Assembly (NCBI GenBank): GCA_044892505.1
Contig: CM097882.1
Span: 538,780,001 to 538,844,000 of the forward strand
Source of the DNA: Schmidtea nova
Lineage: Eukaryota
DNA: 64,000 nucleotides
Direction: 5' to 3'
Below the pieces are notes generated by a model. That model was not told the origin of the DNA. It worked only from the letters and a program-made list of their open reading frames with translations, and did not search any database. Made by a program: the position numbers and the translations under genes. This document shows, in pieces, positions 10,201 to 64,000 of this stretch. How positions within the stretch are numbered: the stretch's first letter is position 1; every line of letters begins with the position of its first letter.

Positions 10201-13106
10201 TCAATAGTTTACTATTACACACTAAAGTTCACATACTATCATGGTACCTGTTCAAAAAGATTTTATGAACTCTGACTCAGTTATAACGTTTTTTGAAAAT
10301 AAAAATGATTTGTTAAGAGAGAATTTATTGAAATTATAAATGATATAGCTTTTTCAACTGATTTATATAATATGAATTTAATCAAAGCAAAGCAAAGGCA
10401 ACTATTTCTGCTTTCGTGTCAAAACTTGCCTAGTATAAACAAAATTTGAGTCCAAGGCTGTTTTATCAGTTTCAAAATTTTTCCTTTGTCGAAACAAATT
10501 ATGACGACATTTTGGCTTATCGCCAGCATTTAGAAGGACTAAAGAAGATTTTACAAATATATTTCAGGTTGTTCTCACTTTTATTATTCCAGATTGGGCC
10601 CTAGAACTTTCCTCAAACATAAAAACAGCAGAATTATCAATACAGGAATAGTTGATAGAACTTTCAACAAACAAAGAGTTAAAATTGAAATTTAAAAAAT
10701 GATATTAAGAATTTTGGTTTCAAAGGCAAATTTCAGTATTATATCCGGCCGTATGGTCTACAGTCTGGATGTTTTTTACTGCACTCCCGTCTTCATATTT
10801 AGCCGAAAGAGGATTTAGCATAGTTTTCAATTTATTAACAAAAAAAAGAAACAGATTGTGAATAGTGGAACGCAGCGATTTAAGATTGTTGATGACAGAA
10901 ATGGCACCAAATATCAAAAAATCAGTGTCATTACACCAAGCTCAGCCTTCTCACTAATAATATAATATTCATTTATTTAGTTAACAATATATATTTCTTA
11001 ATCAAATTTTGAGCAATACACCAAATTTTTTAATATCTTCTAATAAAATAATTTTTAAAAGCTTATTTGTTTTTCACCCAAGACCCGGTGCTATCGAAGC
11101 ATTCTTTTAAAAAGTAGGCTATGACTCAATAAAGTCGGGAACTTACGGATTACAATTTTATTATTGATTTCAAGAAAGGGAATTGGTAAGTTTCTTTTTT
11201 TCTGAAAAAGGTAGCGGTGAGTATTTTCTTTTCGAAAAAGGGGCAATAGACCAAATAAAGGTTGAGAATCTAGGTAATAAATGATTATATTCAGAATTTA
11301 TGTCTATAAATATTATAAATTTATTCCATTATAAATATTTTGTTTTCATTTATTAGCCTTGTGTTTAGTGGTGCTGAGTTTTTTAAGAGAAATTTATTAC
11401 GAATTGATAATTTTTTAAACCTTGAATAATTGAATATTGTTTTAAGGTATCATTAACATGCATTTTCAATAATGTCTTCAGTTAAACTGTTAAACCTTTA
11501 TTTTTTGTATTTTTATTAAATGAAGTCTTTCTAAATATCTAAATTTTTTAAGAGAAATTTATTACGAATTGATAATTTTTTAAACCTTGAATAATTGAAT
11601 ATTGTTTTAAGGTATCATTAACATGCATTTTCAATAATGTCTTCAGTTAAACTGTTAAACCTTTATTTTTTGTATTTTTATTAAATGAAGTCTTTCTAAA
11701 TATCTAAATTTTTTAATATTCTGTCACAATTTTAAACCCTAACATAAAAAGAAACAATCCTAGAAAATTACAAGAGTTAAAAAATGCTTTCAGGATTTAT
11801 ATTTTATTATAAAAATAACAATATATAATGTTACTGGATTGAAAAAGTCATATTAGGAAATCCTTATAGAGAAGAAACGTTTACTAATAAGGAAGGCAAT
11901 CGGGATCATGCCTATAAACAATGGGAACCGTTCATGATGGTTTGTTAAAGTTTTCTAAATCCTAATTTGAATTATCTTAATCGATAGAGTTCAAAATCAG
12001 AAAAACATAGAAATAATAATTATTACCCATCACCAAAAAAGCTTATCAGACCGATAGATGAATGTATTTTTATTCTACCTGATGAAGAAAAAAGAAATAA
12101 ATGTATTTTGGAGTTATCGAAATCGAATTTTACTTCAACATATCAATCTGATTTTAGCCAAATTGATTCCAAGGCACAATGCAGATTAGATCCCATTCCG
12201 AAAACAAATCGAATTCATTCGAGTAAAGTACGAACATTTTGTTTTGTTTTATTATGAAACAAATGTATCAGTCACTTCAATAGTAAGATTTGTCCCCATC
12301 AAATAAGTGCCGCATAGTGTTACATAATATTTGACGCATGCTGTATAATAGATGATGCAATAGTTACACAATTCTAAACAGTGAGTGACATCAATTTAAT
12401 CAACCCAGATTATTAAATCAATCATTTGATTTATGTAAAATAACCCCAAATCGTCAGAATAATTATATTAATTCGATTCCGTAATAAATCTTTCATAAAA
12501 ACGAAAGTAAAAAATTATTCCAACTTGGAAGTTGAACCTGAGCCTCACACATATAATTTTTTCAAACATTGCATTCCAGTGTCTCAACCACTAAGCTACA
12601 TCTGACAATTTTTATAAATAAAATTTTAATATCTATTTGATTTTTGTAATCTTTACATAGGTTTAATAATAATAATAATAATAATACTGCCCTCCTTATC
12701 AAATAGACCGTAACTGCAAAAATACACTTAGGAGATAAATAACAAAACGTGTTTTCAATTCTGCCAACCAGTTAACCTAAACCAATCATCCATTTATATT
12801 TGTTTGCATCTAGGCCTAGTGATGCAGATACGGTCTTATCGCTAAGCAGAATGAAGGTTAATTGCAACTGCATACAGTTGACGCCTCTAACTCGATTTTT
12901 GTAGTTTTGTCAGTTACGGTCTATGTACATTATTATACTTGACACTAATAAAAATAATACATATAATAAATTAAAAAAGACAAATTTTTTAAAAACTTGA
13001 TTTACAAAATTTTACATAATTTTCAATCATACCAGATTCGGTAAAGAAATGTTTTAAGCAAATCATTTTGTGTTGATTAATTGAGAACTAGTTAAAGATT
13101 ATTCAA

Positions 13107-13188
<82 letters not shown>

Positions 13189-16039
13189 ATAAGTCAAGGG
13201 AGGTGTTAATATTTGATGTTAAGAAATTTGTTTAGCCCAACCGAGTCACCAGTAAAAGTGTATCGGAACAGCTCGGGTGTTTGTTCTATTTTATTCATGT
13301 ATGTGGGTGTGTGCTGCTTGTGCACTGCTTGTATATGTTGTGAATGCGTATTAACAACAAATGAACTAAAAACAACAATTGTAGAATCACTTTTAATTTT
13401 TAATAACAATGGCAATAAAACTTGTACTCGCGTAATTCTTTAAATTTCTCCAATCGTTCTTTTGAATTTTAAACCAAAGTTTTTTGTAAATTTACTTGAA
13501 ATTTCTTTGTTAGTCTTTATTTTGAATCCTTAACTAGAGTTTTCTAAAGTTTCCGGATTTTCCAATTTGATGAATTTTTCTAATTTCAGTAGTTAATTTT
13601 TTCTTTCATCAAAATCTAGTTGTCTTTTTATATCCAAATTTTTATTATTAGTTTTTTCCAATTGTCATAGGTAATTCTATAGAAATTTTATTTCAATTGT
13701 CATTTGATCATTGACCTTTTATTTGTATTTTAATTTTTAATTAATACGTGGTGCGCCCAATAAGTCGTGAGACTAATATAGAAATAATAATAGTAAAAAA
13801 CTTGATACAGACATATTTAAACTTCAACATATATAGGTAAAGAAAATGTATTTTGTTTAATTAATCCATTATTGTTTAAGTATATTTTTGCGAACATTCG
13901 AAAAATGCCTCTGGAAAATATTCAATACCGTAGGGTTATTCGCTTTCTCTTTCTGAAATGAAAAAATAGAGAAGAGGTTCTTTCTGAACGGAAAGCTGCT
14001 TACCAACAAGAGTGCCCATCCACAGCAACAATTTATCGTTGGTTCAATTACTTTCAGAGTGGTAGAACGTACGTGATGGAAGAAGAAAGATCTGGAAGAC
14101 CCTCAGAAATTGATGAAAAAAATAACGCAAAAGCTGCAGACAATCGTGCAAAACGAGAGAAAAATAACGACGAGAGAGCTCACAACCCGTCTAAATGTGA
14201 GCAAAGGCACTGTGCATACCCTCCTCACTGAAAGTGGTTTTCGAAAACTATGTTCCCGTTTGGTTCCACGCTTCTTATCGGTGGAAATGTGACAACGACG
14301 CTTGGAATGCTGCTTGGAGAATTTACAGATCATGACCAATGTTGGAGACCGTTTCATTGATAATGTCATCACTGTGTACGAGACACCGTTGTCCCTTTAT
14401 GTCCCAGAATCTAAAAGAGAGTCTCAAGAATGGAAACTGCCAGGAGAAAGTAGCTCACTGAAAATGTGGTCTTCAACTTGCTACCGAAAGGCTCTCATAC
14501 TGACGGTGTTTTGGGACGCCAATGGCATTATTCTAACTGACTTTGCTGAATCTGGCGTGAAGATCAATAGTTCTTACTACTCCAATATCGTGCAGCAAGC
14601 AAGGAAGGCACGACGCAAGACCAGAGTGTGTGATCTCTGTTTTTTACACGATAATGCTCCCATCCACACCAACAGCGTTTCAGTGGCCAAAATTGAGCGT
14701 TGCTGGCTCAATTTGCTTCCCCATCCACCATACAGCCCCGATTTGGCTCCCTCCGATTTTTTCCTTTTTAACCATCTTAAGAAGCATCTGTGGGGCCAGG
14801 TGTTTGCCAACAAACATGATTTGAGAGCAGCCGTGGAGAGAGATTTCTGGGATAAAAGCCTATAGAATTCTTCAAAAACGCCTTCGAAAACCTCGTTATT
14901 CACTGGGAAAATTGTATCAGTGCAGAAGGAAATTATTTTGAGAAATGATGTCTATTTACCATTTTTATTCTAAATACAAAGTTTTGTGTTGATATCTTAA
15001 GTCTCTCTATTTTAGTCTCACGACTTATTGGGCGGACTACGTATTTTCAAGCATAATTACCCAACATTACCAAATAATAAAAAGGAGCGTCATCCTGTGT
15101 TTGCAAGGACGACCTTATTAATAAAAGCGACGACAATATTAATAATGATAATAAAAATAATCACAATGTTGATATAACCTTTACACACACACATATATAT
15201 AATAAAGCACTTATTAGCATTGTAATTAACAAAATTTGAAGTTAAAGAAAAAAATAAATACGAATTAGTTGAGTTAAATCAAACTCGGTTCTAAGAGACT
15301 GCAATTCTTTCATAGATTTATTTCAATTAAAATTTTATAAAAAGTGCCAAATAATCAATTATTAAAACACCAGTTAATTTAAATATCTAACTAGTTGATT
15401 TATCAAAAGAATTTTATGAATTAATTAACAAAAACCTTTATATACTTTACTGAAAGAAAAAATATTGACCATTTTTTTGAAAATGTGTGGATTTTTAAAT
15501 TGTAGCTTATATAAAATTTTAATTGTTAGTTATTGAAAACAATTTTTATAGGTTTAAAACTGATCTAAAATTAAAATAATATATTTGATTGATCATTGTA
15601 CAAATTTTAATAAGAATTCTTAGTAAGTACTTTAGCAATTGAATTGTTTTTTTATTTAAATTTGTCAATTGAATTGTTAAGTTAGACAAAAAATTAATAG
15701 AAATTTCTGTATGTTATTTTAAAAATTTTTAATATATGATTTTCAAATAACTTGGCTATTAAAGTATTTATTTTGAACCAAAACTAGTAATAAGAGTACT
15801 AAATTTAACTTTATTATATAATATAAAATGAAAAACAATTCAATTTACTCATTATCAACCAGTTTCTAATTATTGATAAATTCGATAAGAAACTAATGTA
15901 CGTTAAAAGTAATTTAAATAGATCTTTTTTAAATTAATTTTATTAAATTTCAAATTTCTTAGAATAAATTTTAAAATATTTTTAATAAAAAATAAGTTCA
16001 ATATACGCGATTGATTGGAAACCATTGACAACAAACTAA
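4209..16039 (+). CDS. 7-exon gene, 265 aa, resembling C7orf31/SPMIP4 (DUF4555-like ciliary/sperm microtubule inner protein)
   Basis: Exons 4209-4345, 9024-9122, 9171-9331, 11857-11939, 11988-12227, 15863-15897, 15997-16039. All introns are GT-AG with matching phases; total 798 nt, ATG to TAA with no internal stop. QPYEITQLNLSKNRAHDSLVPSP...IPVYHPYSSHIPYF resembles my recollection of the C7orf31 N-terminal motif; TSTYQSDF and SIYAIDWKP resemble microtubule-inner-protein repeats. The structure is solid; the product name is less certain. Confidence 0.75.
4802..5778 (+). repeat. Solo-LTR family A copy (~977 bp) in intron 1 of the plus-strand gene
   Basis: Ends TTCACCAACAACCCAATAACCCAACA, the reverse complement of the TGTTGGGTTATTGGGTTGTTGGTGAA start at 56910; colinear similarity throughout. 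Confidence 0.8.
5800..6080 (-). mobile_element. Degraded Chapaev-3/CMC-like transposase C-terminal fragment
   Basis: Minus translation LWGKYRADNYNEFVINMLSYFKSLGFNIDTKIHLL matches the LGNxKAxNYxELVxxMLxxYxxLGCNMSLKIHFL pattern. Confidence 0.45.
7080..7330 (+). repeat. Unclassified dispersed repeat; second copy at ~59240-59480
   Basis: Shared blocks AAATAGTAG(G)GCAT(A/T)CG...CATTTCA...GCATCTCAAAA in both places. Confidence 0.5.
9780..11270 (+). mobile_element. Degraded hAT (Buster/SCAND3-ZBED type) transposon
   Basis: IVSVATDGTPATVGRYRGLISYLKNEVPNLIAVHCVIDRQHLVAK (TDGAxAM and CxxH motifs) at ~9940-10080; many stops; GGTTGAGAA right-end-like sequence near 11260. Confidence 0.8.
11381..11715. 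repeat. Near-perfect tandem duplication, 165-bp period, 2 copies
   Basis: AAGAGAAATTTATTACG at 11385 and 11550 with identical downstream sequence. Confidence 0.9.
12703..12924. mobile_element. MITE, 222 bp
   Basis: Perfect 14-bp TIRs ATAGACCGTAACTG (12703-12716) / CAGTTACGGTCTAT (12911-12924); no clear TSD. Confidence 0.7.
13110..13185. repeat. (TA)n microsatellite
   Basis: Direct reading. Confidence 0.98.
13186..15193 (+). mobile_element. Solo-LTR-like family B copy inserted in (TA)n, interrupted by a mariner
   Basis: Starts GTAATAAGTCAAGGGAGG right after (TA)n and ends TTTACACACACACA before TATATA; homologous ends to the copy at 38842-39957. Confidence 0.65.
13747..15041 (+). mobile_element. 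Full-length mariner (DD34D) transposon, 1295 bp, transposase disrupted
   Basis: 29-bp TIRs CGT(G/A)GT(G/C)CGCCCAATAAGTCGTGAGACTA, TA TSD (13745-46, 15042-43); ORFs 14110-14292 and 14302-14865 with HTH, LVPR, LHDNAPIH and YSPDLAPSDF; first catalytic D altered (ITVYET); internal stops. Confidence 0.95.
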
Positions 16040-19174: not shown

Positions 19175-19357
19175 NNNNNNNNNNNNNNNNNNNNNNNNNN
19201 NNNNNNNNNNNNNNNNNNNNNNNNNNNNNNNNNNNNNNNNNNNNNNNNNNNNNNNNNNNNNNNNNNNNNNNNNNNNNNNNNNNNNNNNNNNNNNNNNNNN
19301 NNNNNNNNNNNNNNNNNNNNNNNNNNNNNNNNNNNNNNNNNNNNNNNNNNNNNNNNN
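19175..19357. other. Assembly gap (183 N)
   Basis: Run of N. Confidence 1.
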
Positions 19358-19559
19358 ATCAATAATAGTTATTGATAGATTTGTCTAAGAAAATATATGA
19401 TGGGGACACTTTTATTATTATTTGACTGGGGAAAGCCGGAGAGGAAAATGAAAAAACTTTAATATTTTATTTTATATTTTAGTAAATGAGGGTTGGGGGA
19501 TTTGTTATCCCTTATTTTATTTTTAAAATGAATCATGCTAGTCATTGTGGTGGATGACC

Positions 19560-22500
19560 GTACTTTATTTAAATTAAATAAATATATTTCATATATGACC
19601 TACTTAAATTAAATAATTTTACATATAAAGTATTTAATAAGCCTTTAATAAAAATTAATTTTTCATATAAAAAGTACATAATTTTACTTGAAATAAAAAT
19701 ATTTTTCATATATATTAAGTACTTAATTTTGCCGTAAATAAAAATATTTTCATATATGACCTACTTAATTTGATAATAAATATTTAATTTCTTATATATG
19801 ACCTACTTTATTTGACCTTAAATTGTCCCTTAATATATGACCTACTTTATTTTAAATTAAATAATACGATTTTCATGTATGACCTACTTTATTTTGTCTT
19901 AAATAAAAATATTTCATATATGACCTACTTTATTTTGTCTTAAATAAAAATATTTCATATATGACCTACTTAATTTTAAATTAAATAATAATGTCTTTAT
20001 ATATGACCTACTTAATTTAAATTAAATAAAATTATTTTCATATGACCTACTTAATTTGACTTTAATAATATTTAATTTTCATATAAAAAGTACCAAATTT
20101 GACTTTAAATTAAGTATATAAATATATGACCTACTTAATTTAAAAATATTTTCATATATGACTTACTAAAATTAAATAATTTTTCATATAAAGTACTTCA
20201 TTTGGTTTTAATTAAATCTACTTTTTCATAAATAAAATACCTAATTTGACTTAAAATAAAAATATTTTTAATATATTAAGTACTTAATTTTGTCTTAAAT
20301 AAAAATATTTTCATATATGACCTACTTAATTTGATAATAAATATTTAATTTCTTATATATGACCTACTTTATTTGAACTTAAATTGTCCTTAAATTATAA
20401 TTTTTTATATATGACGTACTTAATTTTAAATTAAATAAAAATATTTCATATATGACCTACTTAATATGATAAAAAATATTTAATTTCTCATATATGACCT
20501 ACTTAATTTAACTTTAATAATATCTAATTTTCGTATGAAAGTACCTAATTTTACTTTAAATTAAATATATGACCTACATAATTTAAAAATATTTCATATA
20601 TGACCTACTTAATTTAATTTAAATAATATCTAATTTTCATACAAAAGTACCTAATTTTACTTTAAATTAAATATTTAAATATATGACCTACTTAATTTAA
20701 AAATATTTCATATATGACCTACTTCATTTAACTCGAATAATATATATTTTTCATACAAAAAGTACCTAATTTTAGTTTAAATTAAATATTTAAATATATG
20801 ACCTACTTTATTTGACCTTAAATTGTCCCTAAATATATGACCTACTTTATTTTAAATTAAATAATACGATTTTCATATATGACCTACTTTATTTTGTCTT
20901 AAATAAAAATATTTCATATATGACCTACTTAATTTTAAATTAAATAATAATGTCTTTATATATGACTTACTTAATTTAAATTAAATAAAATTATTTTCAT
21001 ATGACCTACTTAATTTGACTTTAATAATATTTAATTTTCATATAAAAAGTACCAAATTTGACTTTAAATTAAGTATATAAATATATGACCTACTTAATTT
21101 AAAAATATTTTCATATATGACTTACTAAAATTAAATAATTTTTCATATAAAGTACTTCATTTGGTTTTAATTAAATCTACTTTTTCATAAATAAAATACC
21201 TAATTTGACTTAAAATAAAAATATTTTTAATATATTAAGTACTTAATTTTGTCTTAAATAAAAATATTTTCATATATGACCTACTTAATTTGATAATAAA
21301 TATTTAATTTCTTATATATGACCTACTTTATTTGAACTTAAATTGTCCTTAAATTATAATTTTTTATATATGACGTACTTAATTTTAAATTAAATAAAAA
21401 TATTTCATATATGACCTACTTAATATGATAAAAAATATTTAATTTCTCATATATGACCTACTTAATTTAACTTTAATAATATCTAATTTTCGTATGAAAG
21501 TACCTAATTTTACTTTAAATTAAATATATGACCTACATAATTTAAAAATATTTCATATATGACCTACTTAATTTAATTTAAATAATATCTAATTTTCATA
21601 CAAAAGTACCTAATTTTACTTTAAATTAAATATTTAAATATATGACCTACTTAATTTAAAAATATTTCATATATGACCTACTTCATTTAACTCGAATAAT
21701 ATATATTTTTCATACAAAAAGTACCTAATTTTAGTTTAAATTAAATATTTAAATATATGACCTACTTTATTTGACCTTAAATTGTCCCTAAATATATGAC
21801 CTACTTTATTTTAAATTAAATAATACGATTTTCATATATGACCTACTTTATTTTGTCTTAAATAAAAATATTTCATATATGACCTACTTAATTTTAAATT
21901 AAATAATAATGTCTTTATATATGACTTACTTAATTTAAATTAAATAAAATTATTTTCATATGACCTACTTAATTTGACTTTAATAATATTTAATTTTCAT
22001 TTAAAAAGTACCAAATTTGACTTTAAATTAAGTATATAAATATATGACCTACTTAATTTAAAAATATTTTCATGTATGACTTACTAAAATTAAATAACTT
22101 TTCATATAAAGTACTTCATTTGGTTTTAATAAAATCTACTTTTTCATAAATAAAGTACCTAATTTGACTTTAAATAAAAATATTTTTCATATATTAAGTA
22201 CTTAATTTTGTCTTAAATAAAAATATTTTCATATATGACCTACTTAATTTAAATATATTTCATATGACCTACTTAATTTAATTTAAAGAATATCTAATTT
22301 GCATACAAAAAGTACCTAATTTTACTTTAAATTAAATATTTAAATATATGACCTACTTAATTTAAATATATTTCATATATGACCTACTTAATTTAAATAT
22401 ATTTCATATATGACCTACTTAATTTAATTTAAAGAATATCTAATTTTCATACAAAAAGTACCTAATTTTAGTTTAAATTCAATATTTAAATATATGACCT

Positions 22501-22800
22501 ACTTAATTTAACTTTAATAATATCTAATTTTCATACAAAAAGTACCTAATTTTACTTTAAATTAAATATTTAAATATATGACCTACTTTATTTGACCTTA
22601 AATTGTCCTTAAATATATGACCTACTATATTTGACCTTAAATTCCCCTTAAAAAATGAACCTAAAGTGTCCTTAAATCGACCAAGATCTACTTTTTTGTT
22701 CTTAATGTGTCCTAAAACAAAAAATTTGACCTTAAATTCCTCTTAAGCGAAAAATTTGACCTTAAAATGACCTTAAATTGACCTACATAAAAAATTATTT
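19560..22800. repeat. AT-rich satellite of ATATGACCTACTT-core monomers with a 959-bp higher-order repeat
   Basis: About 43 TGACCTACTT copies counted by eye, alternating with AAAGTAC(C/T)TAAT variants. An identical block starts at 19921, 20880 and 21839 (period 959). TGACCTTAAA variants at the right edge. Confidence 0.95.
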
Positions 22801-22830
22801 TTGACCTATATATGACGGGGACACATCCTA

Positions 22831-23400
22831 CTACTGATGAGCTGGGCTATTAAAGCTTATTGCGAGCACCAGTGATATATTCGCACCTCTCCTGGTAGGA
22901 ATTTGTGCAAAGAGTCTCTTACCTTTTCTGTTTCGTCTGGGAGTTTTGCTTGTCCATGTATTGAAGCCACATTCATCGATGTAGACACATTTATCATCTG
23001 TCCATCCTTCTTCGAGAAGTTTTCGAACGTAATCTGATCTTGTTTGTAAAACTCTTTCCGAGTTTCGATCTACAATACATGTACAGACCTTCTTGAAACT
23101 TATCAGCTTATCTTTTAAAAATCTGGATATTGTTCTTGTGGATACATTGCAGCTAATAGTATTCAGGAAGTTTTTCATTTCTTCCAAAGTAGCCCAATAA
23201 TTGTGGTGCACAAAATCTATTAATTGTGTTCCATTTTCTTCAGTTATTAGGCTGACATGTTTTCTGCCTCTTTTACCTGCTGTAAGAAGGCCAGTTTTTC
23301 CAACGCGACCCTATGTTTTTAATAGTTTTAGGTTCAAAACCCATTTCTCAGCCAAATTCTTCATATTTTTCACCCTATTTCATTATTTCTATTAATAATG
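22831..23400 (-). mobile_element. IS630/Tc1-like (DDE_3-type) transposase fragment, truncated after the first catalytic Asp region
   Basis: HTH region (KRGRK...ATLEEMKNFL...VSTRTISRFLK), SFKK, VYIDECGFNTW, RGANISLVLAIS; frameshift upstream; ends at the satellite junction. Confidence 0.8.
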
Positions 23401-24164: not shown

Positions 24165-24411
24165 TATCGGGGTTGCGACTTTCGTTACCGATACCCCTAA
24201 AACAAAAGTCATTACCATAAAATACAACATTTATTTAAAATATATCTTTTTGTGCTTCATTTAAAACTGCTTCTAAAGTGTTTATATTCAAATTCCAAAT
24301 TCTGCTTCTAAAGTGCTTTATTTCTCTTCAAATTCTCTTCTGCGTTATAAATTTAAATTCTGCCATGCGTTATCTTATTAAAACAACTATTTTTTTATAT
24401 ATGTCCATATT

Positions 24412-24446
<35 letters not shown>

Positions 24447-27186
24447 GATATAATATATTACAATTATTAAAAATATATTTAAATATATATATATATGACA
24501 GAGGCACTACAATAGCCCCCGCCGAAGATCGCGGAGCGTATGGGACAATTGAAAACGGTATTCAAGGGTCAGTGTAAAAAAACTTGGAAGGCGAAACTTA
24601 ATTGTTCTTGTACCGGAGAGCAGTTTGTGTGTACCTTTCGCGACTAGGATGGATGAGGAGCAAGATGTGTCTGTGATGAAGGTGGTAGGTAGTATTGAAT
24701 AAGACGAGTCTGTGTCCATCTTGACGATAAGTGTTGGTGAGAGCGATGACGGAGATGCGGTTTGTGGAGGCTGTGGTAGAATGTGTGTGTAGTCTGTGCG
24801 GGTTTCGTTGTCGGAAAAGGTTAGCGGTGCTTGTGGTATTGTTAGTGGTGTTTTTTATGGTATTGAGGATACTGCAGCTGGTAGTGATGCGATGGCGCTG
24901 TGTGCGGTGTGCTGGGAGATGTTTTTGTTGGTGCTGTTGCAAGTGTTGTGCGAGGTGAGCTGGTTGGTTCTTGTTCTGGTGTTGGTGCTTGTATTGGTAT
25001 TGGTGGTGGTGTTGTGTGAGAAAATAGTACTGTGGAGAGAGTAGCGGTTGTTTCTGAGATGGTGCTAGCTGACGGAGTTAATCGTGTGTGCGTTGGACAT
25101 GGATGGCTGTGAGAAAGGGAATTCACTGGCGGGTAGTCATCGGAGCGTCCAAAAATATCCGATGACTTGATTAATTCGTTCTTGTAGAGGTGATGGTGAA
25201 TACACACTGGGATGATTGGATTTTAATGTGTACGGAATTCGGACGTGCAACCGATGCAGCAATTCTGTGCATGTTGTCTAAATCTGCTGTGGTAAAGGCA
25301 GATTAGTGTCGCGCTCTTATTTGGTTGCATGTTTTGTGCGCGTGTTGTTGGTAGGTGATTGGGATGCTGTGCATCATGTGATGGAGAGGTGTCGTTGAGA
25401 TATCTTTCAACTGTCCGAGGGAAAGGGTGGTGAGGTGTATGCGCTGTGTTAACGGTGGGGGAAGTGGATGTGCTGCGTAAATATCTGCGCAGGATTTATG
25501 TAGTTGCAGTGCGTGAATGCGGTCAGCGATCTTCGCGAGATGATATGGATCTTCAGAGTTAACTAATGCCAGTGAAGTTTGTAGATGGTAGGCGAGTGCA
25601 GAAAGGAATTAGTGGGTCAAAAGAGTTGCGTTTTTAGAATGACCGGGTACTGCCGCATTGTTTGAAGGAACTATTTCTCCCAAAAAGAAACTAGGTTGTT
25701 GGCCTGAGTAAATCTGTGGCGCCAAGAGTTTTTTTAGAGCTTGGATCTGTGAAGAAGTATATTTGGCCGTAATTAGATTTTTTAGGCTTTCGTTTTGATT
25801 TCCTGCGTCAAGAGCATCAGCAATTTTTGGGCTAGTTCGGCTATCAATTCGGCAGGTAAACTGTCGAGGAGGTAATCTGCACGTGACCCTGGAGAGAAAG
25901 ACGTACGCACTTCAAGGATCCGAAACCACGAAAAAGGTGTACCGTCCGGGTCCAGAAAAGACAGAATTGAGCGGAATTCGGATGAGGAATATGGCTCTGT
26001 TGTGATTCTATCGCCTCCTAGGATGCAACAGTTGATGTCCAATATTGAATTAGACTGCAACTGGGTAGAAGAGGAGACTAAAGAACCATTGCACCACACA
26101 TAGAATGAGGTCTTGTCAATGCGAAGCGAAGTGGAAATGTCTGTGTGTAAATCGGAAGTAACGGCGATTTCCCGTATTCTATTATTTAAACGCGTGAGGA
26201 TATAGGCTGGTAGTATCGGTGTGGTTTTATTGAAGGAATCGTTATCGTGTGTTGGATCTAGGTTAAGATTATGGGTGCTGTTTGTAGTTAAAGAGTGGAA
26301 GAGAGGCAGGATAGAAAATTCGGGAAGGGTAATTTTAAATAATATAATATTTATTAAACAATATTTATTAAATAATATATATATATATAATTATCATAAA
26401 TATGAATAAAATTTTATTTATAGAAATATAATTAATAATACTTATTGTCATATGAAATATTTGATATTGTTGTTGGAATGAGTGCATAATTTCGGCATTT
26501 GTTGGAGAGGCTGATAGCAATGAGCACGGAGAAGCAGCAGAGAATATCGACATTCCTACGGGAGGTTGTCGACTAATTGTGTATTGTTGGTTCGGATTGT
26601 GATTGGGATGTGTCACGGAAACTGGGTTTATGATATTGGCTGAAGTGTTACTTCTGCCAACGTGAAATGGAGCCGATAATACTTGAGAATGATTCTGATT
26701 GTCCGATGAAATGAGAGTAAATTGTGGTTGAATAGAATTATGTTGAGGCAAGGACACTACTATTATGAATAATGCTGCTGTTAACGACTTGTTGCGATTA
26801 TGGATGAATCTGATTGAGCATATTATGTTTGTGAGCTACTGAATGTTGCTGGGATGTAGAATATGAAATGGATCCAGGAGGCAACAAAACTGTGAATTGA
26901 GCAAATCTTAAGGGTAAATTATTCCCTATCGCAATTGTCTGTGAAGGCATAACATTGTCGTTTCTGACACCAATTATCGGGGATGCGACTTTCGTTGCCT
27001 ATACCCCGAAAACAAAAGTCATTACCATAAAATACAACATTTATTTAAAAGATATTTTTTTGTGCTTCTTTTAAAACTGATTCTAAAGTGCTTTATTTCT
27101 CTTCAAATTCTCTTCTGCGTTATAAATTTAAATTCTGTCATGCGTTATCTTATTAAAACAACTACTTTTTTATATATGTCCATATC

Positions 27187-27260
<74 letters not shown>

Positions 27261-27290
27261 AATAAATATATGTATGACAGAGGCACTACA
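24165..27290 (-). mobile_element. Non-autonomous Gypsy LTR element (gag + protease only), 3126 bp
   Basis: LTRs 26975-27290 and 24165-24511 (TGTAGT...CCGATA on minus); 5-bp TSD ATTTC (24160-64, 27291-95); PBS TGGTGTCAGAA (tRNA-Leu CAA type); PPT GGCGGGGGCTAT; gag remnants (DPDGTPFSWFRILE..., CLYHSRFRQHAQNC) and protease (MDTDSSYSILP); no RT, RNase H or integrase. Confidence 0.92.
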
Positions 27291-27309
27291 ATTTCAAAAT
27301 ATTAATAAT

Positions 27310-28498: not shown

Positions 28499-58744
<30,246 letters not shown>

Positions 58745-60506: not shown

Positions 60507-60588
60507 AGTAGTTAGATAATGGCCCTTGAACTCACTTCAAATTCTACCCACCCCCCCACCCCCCTAGAAATTTTTTTTTCTGAGTTTA

Positions 60589-60867
60589 CGGGTCACTATG
60601 TTTTTTCTGGCCATTTTTGTATTGGAAATTTATTGTCAGTCTTTTGTACAGATGCGTTAGCGGGCCATTATGTTTTTGGGTCAATCTTTTTTATTGGAAA
60701 ATTTTTGTCGGTCTCTTGTACAGGTGCGTTGACGGGCCACTATGTTTTTCTGGTCATTATTGTATTGGAAATTTATTGTCGGTCTTTTGTACAGGTGCGT
60801 TTGCGGGCCATTATGTTTTTGGATCGATCTTTGTATTGGAAAACTTTTCTCGGTCTTTTGTACAGGG
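60589..60867. repeat. Four ~72-bp subterminal tandem repeats alternating A/B
   Basis: CGGG(T/C)CA(C/T)TATG unit starts at 60589, 60661, 60733, 60804; units 1/3 and 2/4 are most alike. Confidence 0.9.
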
Positions 60868-61147
60868 ATTTTTAGCTCCGAGATTTTTCTCGGGCAAAAA
60901 GGGACTCTAGTAATGTGAGAGTTGAAATGACACAATATTTAAAATTTAATAAAAAAAAAGGGTAAAATTAATTTTTTGGAGAAATCAGAGTTGGTAAATT
61001 TTTAAATATAAAATGAAATTCTTTTTTCACAAAATTCTTTTTTAAACCAATAAAAGTCTTAACTAATAAAAAGAAAAATTTTTAACTAATAAAAAGAAAC
61101 ATTTTTAACTAATAACAATTCAAATAAATAAAAAAAAACATTTTTAA

Positions 61148-64000
61148 CTAAATTTTATTAAAATAAATACAAATTTTATTAAAATAAATCTTCTTCATCG
61201 TCTTCTTCTGTAACTTGATTGAATTCTCTGTCATTAGTGTCTTTATAATGCCCGTATGCACAACTTTCATTTTTACCCAAACCCTTTTATCATCATTATT
61301 AGTTAGTGCAATTTTTGAATTTTTAAAGCTATATAACTGATGATTTTTTGTACCTATTCTAAATTGTGGTACACTAATCTCTGAGTTATTTAAATAACAT
61401 TTTACATATGAATCGTGGTCTATTTTAGTATCCTTTAATGTTGCTCCCTTAGCTTTTGTAGTATTAGTTTTACCCAACAAGCTGTAACATTTCGGTCTAA
61501 GGAAAATCCACTCATCATATCCTTCACCCTTACTTTCATCTTTGAATTTCCCAATAACAGAATCCAATTTCTTGCTGTATAGTGGGCGATCAGTTCGATA
61601 ATTTGATGTATCTAACAAGTTATCATTTTTCATTTCATTTAATAATATTTCTAATTTTAGATTTTTAATTTCTAGAAAAAACGAATCTGTATCGCCTGCT
61701 ACGATATTTATCTGACAACTATATTTGTCGCGATATTTTTGTAAATCTTTGTATTGTAATTCGTACATTCGAAGTTTTGATAAATCAAGCACCGATTGTC
61801 CAATATAACTCGGTCTATCTAAACAAATCGAATCTGGATTTAATAAAGCAGCAACTAAATTATCGTCGATTTTAATAGATTTTTTGAAAGAAGGTTTGGA
61901 TGTACATATAACTAGTTTTTTCTCTGTTGAACATAATCTTAAATTCATTCTCCTTTTAAGATTTTCCACGGTTTTGCCATACAGACTATTATTGAGTAAT
62001 TTGAAAAAGTTTTTATCTAAAGTATTAGTACTTTTCGCCCGCAATTCAGTGTTGGTGTCTATATATTTATTGAAAATTGGAGATTGCTTAAATTTAACTG
62101 CTCTATTTATCTTTGTGACTTTAACACCAAGTTCTAAATATAATTGAAGTAATCGCCAATGAATTATATAATTCTTTTTAGGGTAATGAGTCAATAGTAA
62201 TTTTTCTACTTTTGAACCTCGTGGTTTCATTTTTTCTGCAGCTACCGGGAAATCATCCAAGAAATCATGAATTTCAGCAGGTATTTCCAAATTTACCTCT
62301 AAAGTGTAACCGTAAGATATAGATTCAAGATTTAGATTAATACAGTCATGCAAAATATTATCTAAATTATCAGTCACCCAACTAAATTCTCCACAAGGTA
62401 AAGGTTGACTTAAAGCCCATCCGTAAAGATTATTTATATCGATGTACAATAATTCTGTATTTTCATCGGTTTTAACGAAGTGTTTATTTACAAAAGTCAG
62501 ACCTCCTCGAATTCCCCCTTCATAAAAGCTAAACATTTCATTTTCTGTTATTAATTCTATTGGTTCATCTAAAGTCATTAAAGAAGATGACCAAGACATG
62601 CCAGGAATACCAAAGTAATTCAATGGCTCTAACCTATTGTGAGCTATAGATTTGGTTCGAAATTGCTGAATGAAATCAGCCAAAAGAAAGCAATCAAGTT
62701 TCAAGTAAGTCATCATATAATCTAAAAGAGTAACACAGTTTGTTTCTGTCCAAATCAGTTGTGCCTTTTCATATTCTTCTTTTGAAACACCTTTCCAGAT
62801 TGGTGGTAACTCATAAGTATTTTCAAGTACTTCTAAACTTGTAGCAAAGCTATACGGAAAAATACCCTTTTCAGAAACTATAGTTCCATTAAAAACCGAA
62901 TTTGTCAAAGGTAAAGATTTCAACGTTTTCACTGCCTTTGCCAAAGAATCATTCACAAACTGGTATGAGTCTATAAATCTTAAACTAATCTTGCCAACAT
63001 GAGCTATCAATGAAATAAATTTTTCAGTTGTAATAGGTATACAACCCAATGACCAATTCTTGAACTTATTTAATCCGTGTTTAAGGATATGATGCATATC
63101 ATATCCTTTCAAGTTATGAAAAACTATTGGTAAAGACTTGTTGATTTTTCTATTAATGTTACACGTTTGACATGCTGCACCTAAATATTTCCCAGTGAAA
63201 TGGTCGTGGTCTCTTACAGGATCTACGATATTTTTCATGCAAAGGTAACAAGTGGTACCATTTTTAAATTGATCCTCTTCAATTTCAGTCAATCTATTCA
63301 TTGGTTTGTTTCCATTTTTATTGTAATATGGAAGAACTTTTAATAAAGCAATATCTTCAATCGCTTTTAAAAATTCATCTACACAATTTAGTCCAATAAA
63401 TTGTTGGTAAGACTTTGTCCCCTCAAAGTTATTTATTAACAAAAGACCCGCAGAAATAGGCAAGTGTTTCTGATAATATACATCATCCTTTGGTAAAATA
63501 GCTTCAAAGTCTGCATAAATAACGAATGGTGGGGTAACAGTTTTTGACCAATCTGTAAATTTTAGCATTTTATTTTCCGGGAAAGTGTATAATGTTGTTC
63601 CTAGTTGATTTTTTCTGCATAAAATCTCATGTTTTTCAAACGATAATTTATTTGGGAAACCATTTAAACATCTACTGCACCATTCGCTTCTTATCCTAGT
63701 AGTACAATAAATGCTTTGGTGACAATTCATTAAACGTTTTAAATTTATAATAGGTACATAATGATATTTTTCCCCTTCATTTAATAACAATAAATTTATA
63801 GTTTTTCCTTCTATTACCTTTGACCGATGAATAATATCCAAATGAGGATGCTTTAAAATATAATCATCTTGCTCTTCATTAATTTCATTATTATAACATA
63901 GTACATTTATGATCAATCCTGGATTCTTTGCCTCGAATTTTCTGATACTATTTAATTTCATGGGCATGTCTGATATATCATATTTGAGCTCTGACAAAAA
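61148..64000 (-). CDS. pPolB: Protein-primed family B DNA polymerase with inserted endonuclease VII/HNH-like Zn domain; 5' end outside the window
   Basis: Exo I YADFE, Exo II FHNLKGYD, Exo III YLKLD; Pol YIDINNLYG, KLLNNSLYGK, GDTDS, RPKCY; CYLC...DHDHFTGKYLGAACQTCN insertion. The track's 'M' at 63997 is a TTG, so the frame runs off the window. Likely 1-nt frameshift at 61270-61274 (true stop 61179-61181). Confidence 0.97.
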   Translation of the reverse strand, partial: FLSELKYDISDMPMKLNSIRKFEAKNPGLIINVLCYNNEINEEQDDYILKHPHLDIIHRSKVIEGKTINLLLLNEGEKYHYVPIINLKRLMNCHQSIYCTTRIRSEWCSRCLNGFPNKLSFEKHEILCRKNQLGTTLYTFPENKMLKFTDWSKTVTPPFVIYADFEAILPKDDVYYQKHLPISAGLLLINNFEGTKSYQQFIGLNCVDEFLKAIEDIALLKVLPYYNKNGNKPMNRLTEIEEDQFKNGTTCYLCMKNIVDPVRDHDHFTGKYLGAACQTCNINRKINKSLPIVFHNLKGYDMHHILKHGLNKFKNWSLGCIPITTEKFISLIAHVGKISLRFIDSYQFVNDSLAKAVKTLKSLPLTNSVFNGTIVSEKGIFPYSFATSLEVLENTYELPPIWKGVSKEEYEKAQLIWTETNCVTLLDYMMTYLKLDCFLLADFIQQFRTKSIAHNRLEPLNYFGIPGMSWSSSLMTLDEPIELITENEMFSFYEGGIRGGLTFVNKHFVKTDENTELLYIDINNLYGWALSQPLPCGEFSWVTDNLDNILHDCINLNLESISYGYTLEVNLEIPAEIHDFLDDFPVAAEKMKPRGSKVEKLLLTHYPKKNYIIHWRLLQLYLELGVKVTKINRAVKFKQSPIFNKYIDTNTELRAKSTNTLDKNFFKLLNNSLYGKTVENLKRRMNLRLCSTEKKLVICTSKPSFKKSIKIDDNLVAALLNPDSICLDRPSYIGQSVLDLSKLRMYELQYKDLQKYRDKYSCQINIVAGDTDSFFLEIKNLKLEILLNEMKNDNLLDTSNYRTDRPLYSKKLDSVIGKFKDESKGEGYDEWIFLRPKCYSLLGKTNTTKAKGATLKDTKIDHDSYVKCYLNNSEISVPQFRIGTKNHQLYSFKNSKIALTNNDDKRVWVKMKVVHTGIIKTLMTENSIKLQKKTMKKIYFNKICIYFNKI

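Follow-up and report, generated by a model that had tools for sequence, protein, structure and literature searches.

A satellite-like array of nuclear-receptor-type motifs running into a Polinton-like terminus in Schmidtea nova

The locus and the anatomy of the array

The window, by which we mean the whole stretch of 64,000 nucleotides analysed here from Schmidtea nova (GenBank assembly GCA_044892505.1, contig CM097882.1, positions 538,780,001 to 538,844,000 of the forward strand), holds a tandem array of 3 kb and, around it, a host gene and mobile-element sequences of several kinds. The host gene, which is lysophospholipid acyltransferase-like and has introns of about 45–52 nt, lies on the minus strand at 49131–49773, the introns having been read by eye. 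Its exon gave no hits among 183 candidates in one search and 423 relatives in another, with 41–61 % identity among the 150 listed. An EF-hand-like exon, likewise recognised by eye, lies near 28800; the gene possibly extends to about 28500, and it is this exon that suggests a gene span of about 21 kb with transposon-filled introns. The mobile-element sequences include a retroelement integrase remnant (780–2190), a mariner copy with terminal inverted repeats (13743–15045), a second mariner fragment (46913–47170), an open integrase frame with rve and zinc-binding domains (37028–37900) and a decayed LTR-like element at 24165–27292, the direct repeats of which (24165–24513 and 26975–27292) are 83 % identical. 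Together with the short introns of the acyltransferase-like gene, the transposons point to an A/T-rich animal as the host. Two intronless frames encoding 198 and 159 amino acids from ATG are found on the minus strand in an island of 40 % GC (51101–51709 and 51883–52425); neither matched Pfam or PHROGs, and both may belong to a mobile element as accessory genes. PHROGs returned no family for eight frames other than the polymerase frame described below. An exact tandem duplication of 165 bp at 11379–11716 is possibly an assembly artefact.

The array itself (19555–22640) is a 3 kb run of a repeat of about 42 bases, composed of 77 monomers of 29–52 bp, mostly 39–44 bp, to which one extra degenerate unit at 19555 has to be added. 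Two classes of monomers can be distinguished, namely 53 units of type A (TGAC.TAC) and 24 units of type B (AA(G/A)TAC). On the minus strand, 43 type A units match the consensus of a response element for the nuclear receptor ROR and the remaining ten carry a broken site, while type B units are devoid of AGGTCA and show an A-rich or palindromic stretch in the place of the half-site. The sequence that types A and B share is TAC..AATTT rather than AGGTCA.

Superimposed on the monomers is a higher-order repeat of 959 bp, comprising 24 monomers and present in about 2.4 copies (19912–20870, 20871–21829 and 21830–22250). Compared at a lag of 959, the copies show eight mismatches in 1380 bp (99.4 % identity), one of them in a core and seven in spacers, and the first and second copies differ at a single base in about 1130. 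The 43 sites are distributed over the left flank (5), the three block copies (14, 13 and 5) and the right flank (6). As the second and third block copies hold 18 of these sites, the spacers of those 18 were duplicated along with the sites themselves; further local duplications are common to the 25 sites outside the duplicated copies.

On its inner side the array is separated by 200 bp from an assembly gap of 183 N (19175–19357), so that these 200 bp are the only assembled interior between gap and array. This inner flank (19358–19554) carries at 19393, in direct orientation and with one mismatch, a 17 nt copy of a piece of the terminal box described below, located there at 22808. Rfam gave no matches in 19358–23400, and inverted repeats inside the array, which are A/T-rich with 70–76 % matches, were rejected as a terminal repeat. 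A short related array of six units, with both monomer types and 67–78 % identity to the main array in blastn, lies at 281–497. One of its six units matches the ROR consensus (at 408), repeats of 30 bp come next, and then a candidate end near 774, which reads AGAAGT inward and is situated about 280 bp outside this short array.

Counting of the motif WAWNTRGGTCA in 19560–22640 gave 43 occurrences on the minus strand and none on the plus strand, just as a preliminary description of this DNA had put it (about 43 ROR-type sites in a single orientation), whereas 300 dinucleotide shuffles of the array contained 0.17 on average and two at most. On the plus strand the 43 sites are spelled 28 times as TGACCTACTTAA, 13 times as TGACCTACTTTA and twice as TGACCTACATAA; the exact string given in that description, TGACCTACTT(A/T)A, occurs 41 times. 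Its naming of the motif as ROR-type is borne out as well, with 45 array matches to DDMWBTRGGTCA, the ROR consensus given in the accessible part of PMC7310410. The array sites resemble the ROR response element described in that part of the source in matching its consensus; they differ from it in being amplified inside a repeat and in being known here from sequence alone. Distances between neighbouring sites range from 29 to 191 bp with a median of 42 bp, and thus the spacing of about 30–120 bp that had been described holds for most of the array, but not for four of the 42 gaps, which exceed 120 bp.

Outside the array, the rest of the window contains three matches to WAWNTRGGTCA versus 1.8 expected. 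AGGTCA alone occurs 25 times outside the main array versus 15.7 expected, part of this excess stemming from a cluster at 33775–33866, another short array of TGACCTT units within a different repeat. Dimeric receptor arrangements of the DR1, DR2, DR4, IR1 or IR3 type were searched for and none was found. A single 41-mer of array composition would hold a ROR site with a probability of about 4.5e-4. What the shuffle test on the 43 sites demonstrates is tandem repetition and not selection of the motif, which is one of many that might have caught the eye.

The terminus at 22835 and related ends

The array leads up to an abrupt terminus at 22835, from which the minus strand reads AGTAGTAG inward. Array monomers grade continuously into the terminal 200 bp by way of a subterminal segment of looser repeats on the minus strand (22640–22801), and the last 300 nt, read inward, contain nine AGGTCA half-sites, five of them in the form TAAGGTCA. 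The outermost 34 nt (22802–22835, minus strand), which start with AGTAGTAG, constitute a terminal box that we regard as a candidate Polinton/Maverick end on the grounds of its (AGT)2 motif and its recurrence. A second copy of this box lies at 31818–31851 (minus strand, 28 of 33 matches) with no array behind it; a third, at 56252–56285 (minus strand, 27 of 34 matches), has one AGGTCA 122 nt inward and no array either. The best score obtained in 100 locally shuffled windows was 23. The identity among the three loci starts exactly at the AGTAGTAG motif, the bases outside of it being different, and the terminal (AGT)2 motif is present at 22835, 31851 and 56285 in the same form. By itself, AGTAGT is not enriched in the window (24 seen versus 39.7 expected).

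In vertebrate Mavericks the commonest end is 5'-(AGT)2//(ACT)2-3', target-site duplications measure 6 bp and terminal repeats 46–1447 bp (PMC8097293), a length exceeded by the 3.3 kb of repetitive end found here. No inverted partner was detected in the window, which has the N gap at 19175–19357, for any of five candidate ends. For the array terminus, the best match on the plus strand, at 12279, was rejected as partner end, as it shows 24 of 34 matches, a different outer 6-mer and no array behind it; with 24 matches against a null maximum of 23 it is perhaps a decayed fourth end. Nor did the window contain, for any of these five ends, a partner whose outer 6-mer was identical, as a 6 bp target-site duplication would require; such a partner may have been lost or may be hidden in the gap. 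A tblastn search with 120 polymerase homologues found no match left of 61000, and hence no polymerase gene linked to the array.

Such a gene is, however, encoded at the right edge of the window, where an element starting with AGTAGT extends from 60507 to 64000. Its end is followed by four tandem repeats of 71 bp (60584–60866) and then by the frame of a family-B DNA polymerase on the minus strand (61148–64000, 950 amino acids, open at the window edge). Homologues of this polymerase made up 2098 of 8000 scored candidates at E<=0.001, the best with 62 % identity and many carrying PF03175, while PDB gave no matches at E<=1. The frame includes an endonuclease VII-like insert, and endonuclease VII is the only assignment that PHROGs made for it. 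The end at 60507 does not share the 34 nt box and thus belongs to a family different from that of the array's end. It nevertheless shows that this genome combines an AGTAGT end and subterminal repeats with a Polinton-type gene.

Directly beyond the array terminus, the remnant of a Tc1/IS630-like transposase is found on the minus strand at 22836–23310. Its Pfam match to DDE_3 (E=0.0021) is below the curated cut-off and covers positions 2–45 of the 146 profile positions only. Translation across the junction revealed that the transposase frame stops at the first bases of the element, as an insertion target would, and a search of the remaining window for a C-terminal motif of the Tc1 type was negative. 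A database comparison of the Tc1-like frame gave no hits among 330 candidates. An older Tc1/IS630-like transposon appears to have been the insertion site of the element.

Conservation of the site and origin of the array

The preliminary description had contrasted an invariant core with variable spacers and had argued from it for selection for protein binding. Pairwise comparison of the 28 distinct type A monomers gave identities of 0.917 for the 11 nt site, of which seven positions are fixed by the type A definition itself, 0.924 for the nine flanking bases and 0.861 for the distal spacer, for which random pairs reach 0.73 with the same aligner. The site is accordingly not conserved above its immediate flanks, although the distal spacer of type A units varies a little more than their core, and the conserved block of about 20 bp is wider than the receptor site. 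When all 43 distinct monomers are compared (45 if the units are cut one base differently), the values are 0.739 for the site, 0.843 for the flanking bases and 0.836 for the distal spacer. At the four site positions that are not anchored, the consensus is broken by four of six variant alleles versus ten of twelve possible ones (P=0.26). Type A units are uniform at the seven anchor positions (TGAC and TAC), but the nominal P=0.009 for this is circular since the anchors define the type. The only common core variant in type A is an A/T position that the consensus tolerates (13 of 53 units); variants that break the site are present in one to three units each. The core makes up 19 % of the bases in the stretch compared at lag 959 and received one of the eight copy differences, so that no protection is detectable, although power is low. 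The contrast drawn between core and spacers is not confirmed, considering that 34 of the 77 monomers lack an intact site and 18 sites have copied spacers. The argument for selection built on it is mostly unsupported for the same 34 units, the equal conservation of the flanks, the TAC..AATTT shared by both types and the single site among the six units at 281–497.

The best explanation, to which we give a probability of roughly 60 %, is that a Polinton/Maverick-type element has its right end at 22835 and that the array represents its subterminal repeats, which slippage and unequal exchange have expanded, with the receptor-type sites as a by-product. The earlier suspicion that a virus-like element owns the array gains support from the (AGT)2 terminus of the Polinton type that the array abuts, a terminus that had been missed in the preliminary description; as annotation, the link of a satellite-like array to such an end is a modest gain. 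Membership in the Polintons is unproven, as no partner end, target-site duplication or genes were found, and the element is best called Polinton-like by its motif and context. It shares with Polinton/Maverick ends (PMC8097293) the (AGT)2 terminal motif, and the window holds a polymerase-B element with such an end and subterminal repeats; it deviates from them in that one end only was seen at the array locus, with neither a duplication nor a core gene linked to it, and in a repeat region of over 3 kb in place of the 46–1447 bp of vertebrate terminal repeats. The missing enrichment of AGTAGT and the absence of the 34 nt box from the polymerase-bearing end also speak against this reading. A further parallel is offered by the eri-6/7 repeats of C. 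elegans, which, according to the accessible part of 10.1101/2024.01.15.575659, derive from Polinton terminal repeats and likewise are host-genome remains of a Polinton end in which transcription-factor sites are predicted. In C. elegans they form direct repeats co-opted at a host gene, whereas the array has no evident host role.

Slippage and unequal exchange are established behaviour of tandem repeats. A founder end would have held a handful of units of about 42 bp, as still seen at 281–497, probably within the cis-acting end on which replication or integration proteins as well as host factors would load. In the present copy these units were then most likely amplified by slippage and unequal exchange, as the nested periods suggest, with monomers and A-B pairs multiplied before the 959 bp block. 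The ROR consensus would have arisen by chance in one founder unit, and its 43 copies would be owed to amplification and not to selection for each site. A host receptor might well bind the array sites, the copy number of which is most likely a by-product.

An unlikely origin in our estimation is a non-autonomous Helitron or Helentron with central tandem repeats, the 34 nt box being its conserved 3' end. The Helitron/Helentron arrays of the Pacific oyster, as far as the accessible part of PMC8268682 describes them, are similar to the array in that they lie inside a mobile element with a short terminal box (42–53 bp, often one-sided) common to otherwise different elements and families. On the plus strand all three boxes found here end in CTAC followed by T, which is close in sequence to the 3' end of Helitrons, the end at 774 even reads CTAG, and the failure to find a target-site duplication would fit as well. 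The canonical 3' end, however, consists of CTRR and a stem-loop according to the accessible part of PMC4344730, whereas the boxes have CTAC, and at 774 the base after CTAG is C instead of T. Eight folds of the five ends gave no fold better than shuffles (z from -1.53 to +0.14), and, unlike in the oyster elements, neither a hairpin above chance nor a CTRR end at the array was seen, nor a (CTGT)n-type microsatellite beside it. An (AGT)n repeat, moreover, takes up the eight terminal bases, more than a Helitron end requires. Least likely of all the readings weighed here is that the array is a free-standing satellite located near a transposon end by chance, with the 959 bp triplication possibly inflated by mis-assembly. 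The proximity of the assembly gap, the near-identity of block copies 1 and 2 and the two end-box copies without an array would be in line with it, but there is a gradual transition from the monomer to the terminal 200 bp, and the only other occurrence of the monomer in the window is likewise close to a candidate end, about 280 bp inward of it.

Slightly lower odds than to a Helitron have to be given to the idea that selection has shaped the array as a cluster of monomeric receptor sites and that the ends recruit a host receptor of the NR1, NR3 or NR5 type as enhancer or origin factor. It would tie the activity of the element to the state of the host and is compatible with a Polinton origin; the ends of adenoviruses, which recruit host factors, provide an analogy. 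Apart from the 43 consensus matches in a single orientation, it draws on inward RGGTCA, which lies within 300 nt of four of five candidate ends and is missing from the opposite strand at all five, compared to 24 of 380 background tiles and none of 20 other AGTAGT sites. The nominal P of 8e-5 for this is overstated, because the five ends were chosen post hoc and similarity to the array's end had guided the choice of three of the other four, leaving 60507 as the only independent one. The tolerated A/T as the only common core variant, the rarity of site-breaking variants and the lower identity of the distal spacer within type A also speak for selection. Against it stand the 24 units without AGGTCA and the ten more with a broken site, the equally conserved flanks that are not part of the site, the one core change among eight block-copy differences, low as its power is, and the absence of dimeric arrangements. 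Many half-sites near the terminus take the form TNAAGGTCA, which is of the ERR/SF-1 type and occurs eight times in 19560–22836, so that the receptor, if there is any, need not be ROR. For flatworms, and this would also count against the idea, orthologues of ROR and E75/Rev-erb are reported as missing in the accessible part of PMC8363021, whereas E78 and a divergent NR1b exist. Taken further, the doubtful extension of this idea would be that in this animal the ends of Polinton-type elements rely on monomeric nuclear receptors of the host, several end families carrying inward RGGTCA and the 43-site cluster acting as a receptor-controlled enhancer, origin or sink. A search of the open-access literature, by listings alone, brought up no publication that deals with sites for nuclear receptors at the ends of Polintons, and the accessible parts of PMC6431247 and PMC12694884 have nothing to add on the matter.

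Implications for transposon ends and Polinton activation

Should receptors act at these ends after all, they would provide a testable trigger for the activation of Polintons, which is treated as environmentally triggered and unresolved in the accessible part of 10.1101/2022.07.12.499685. Under the preferred reading as an amplified subterminal repeat, the array exemplifies how a transposon end may grow a higher-order repeat of kilobase scale. It also calls for caution, as a perfect motif within a tandem unit can give rise to dozens of perfect sites without selection.
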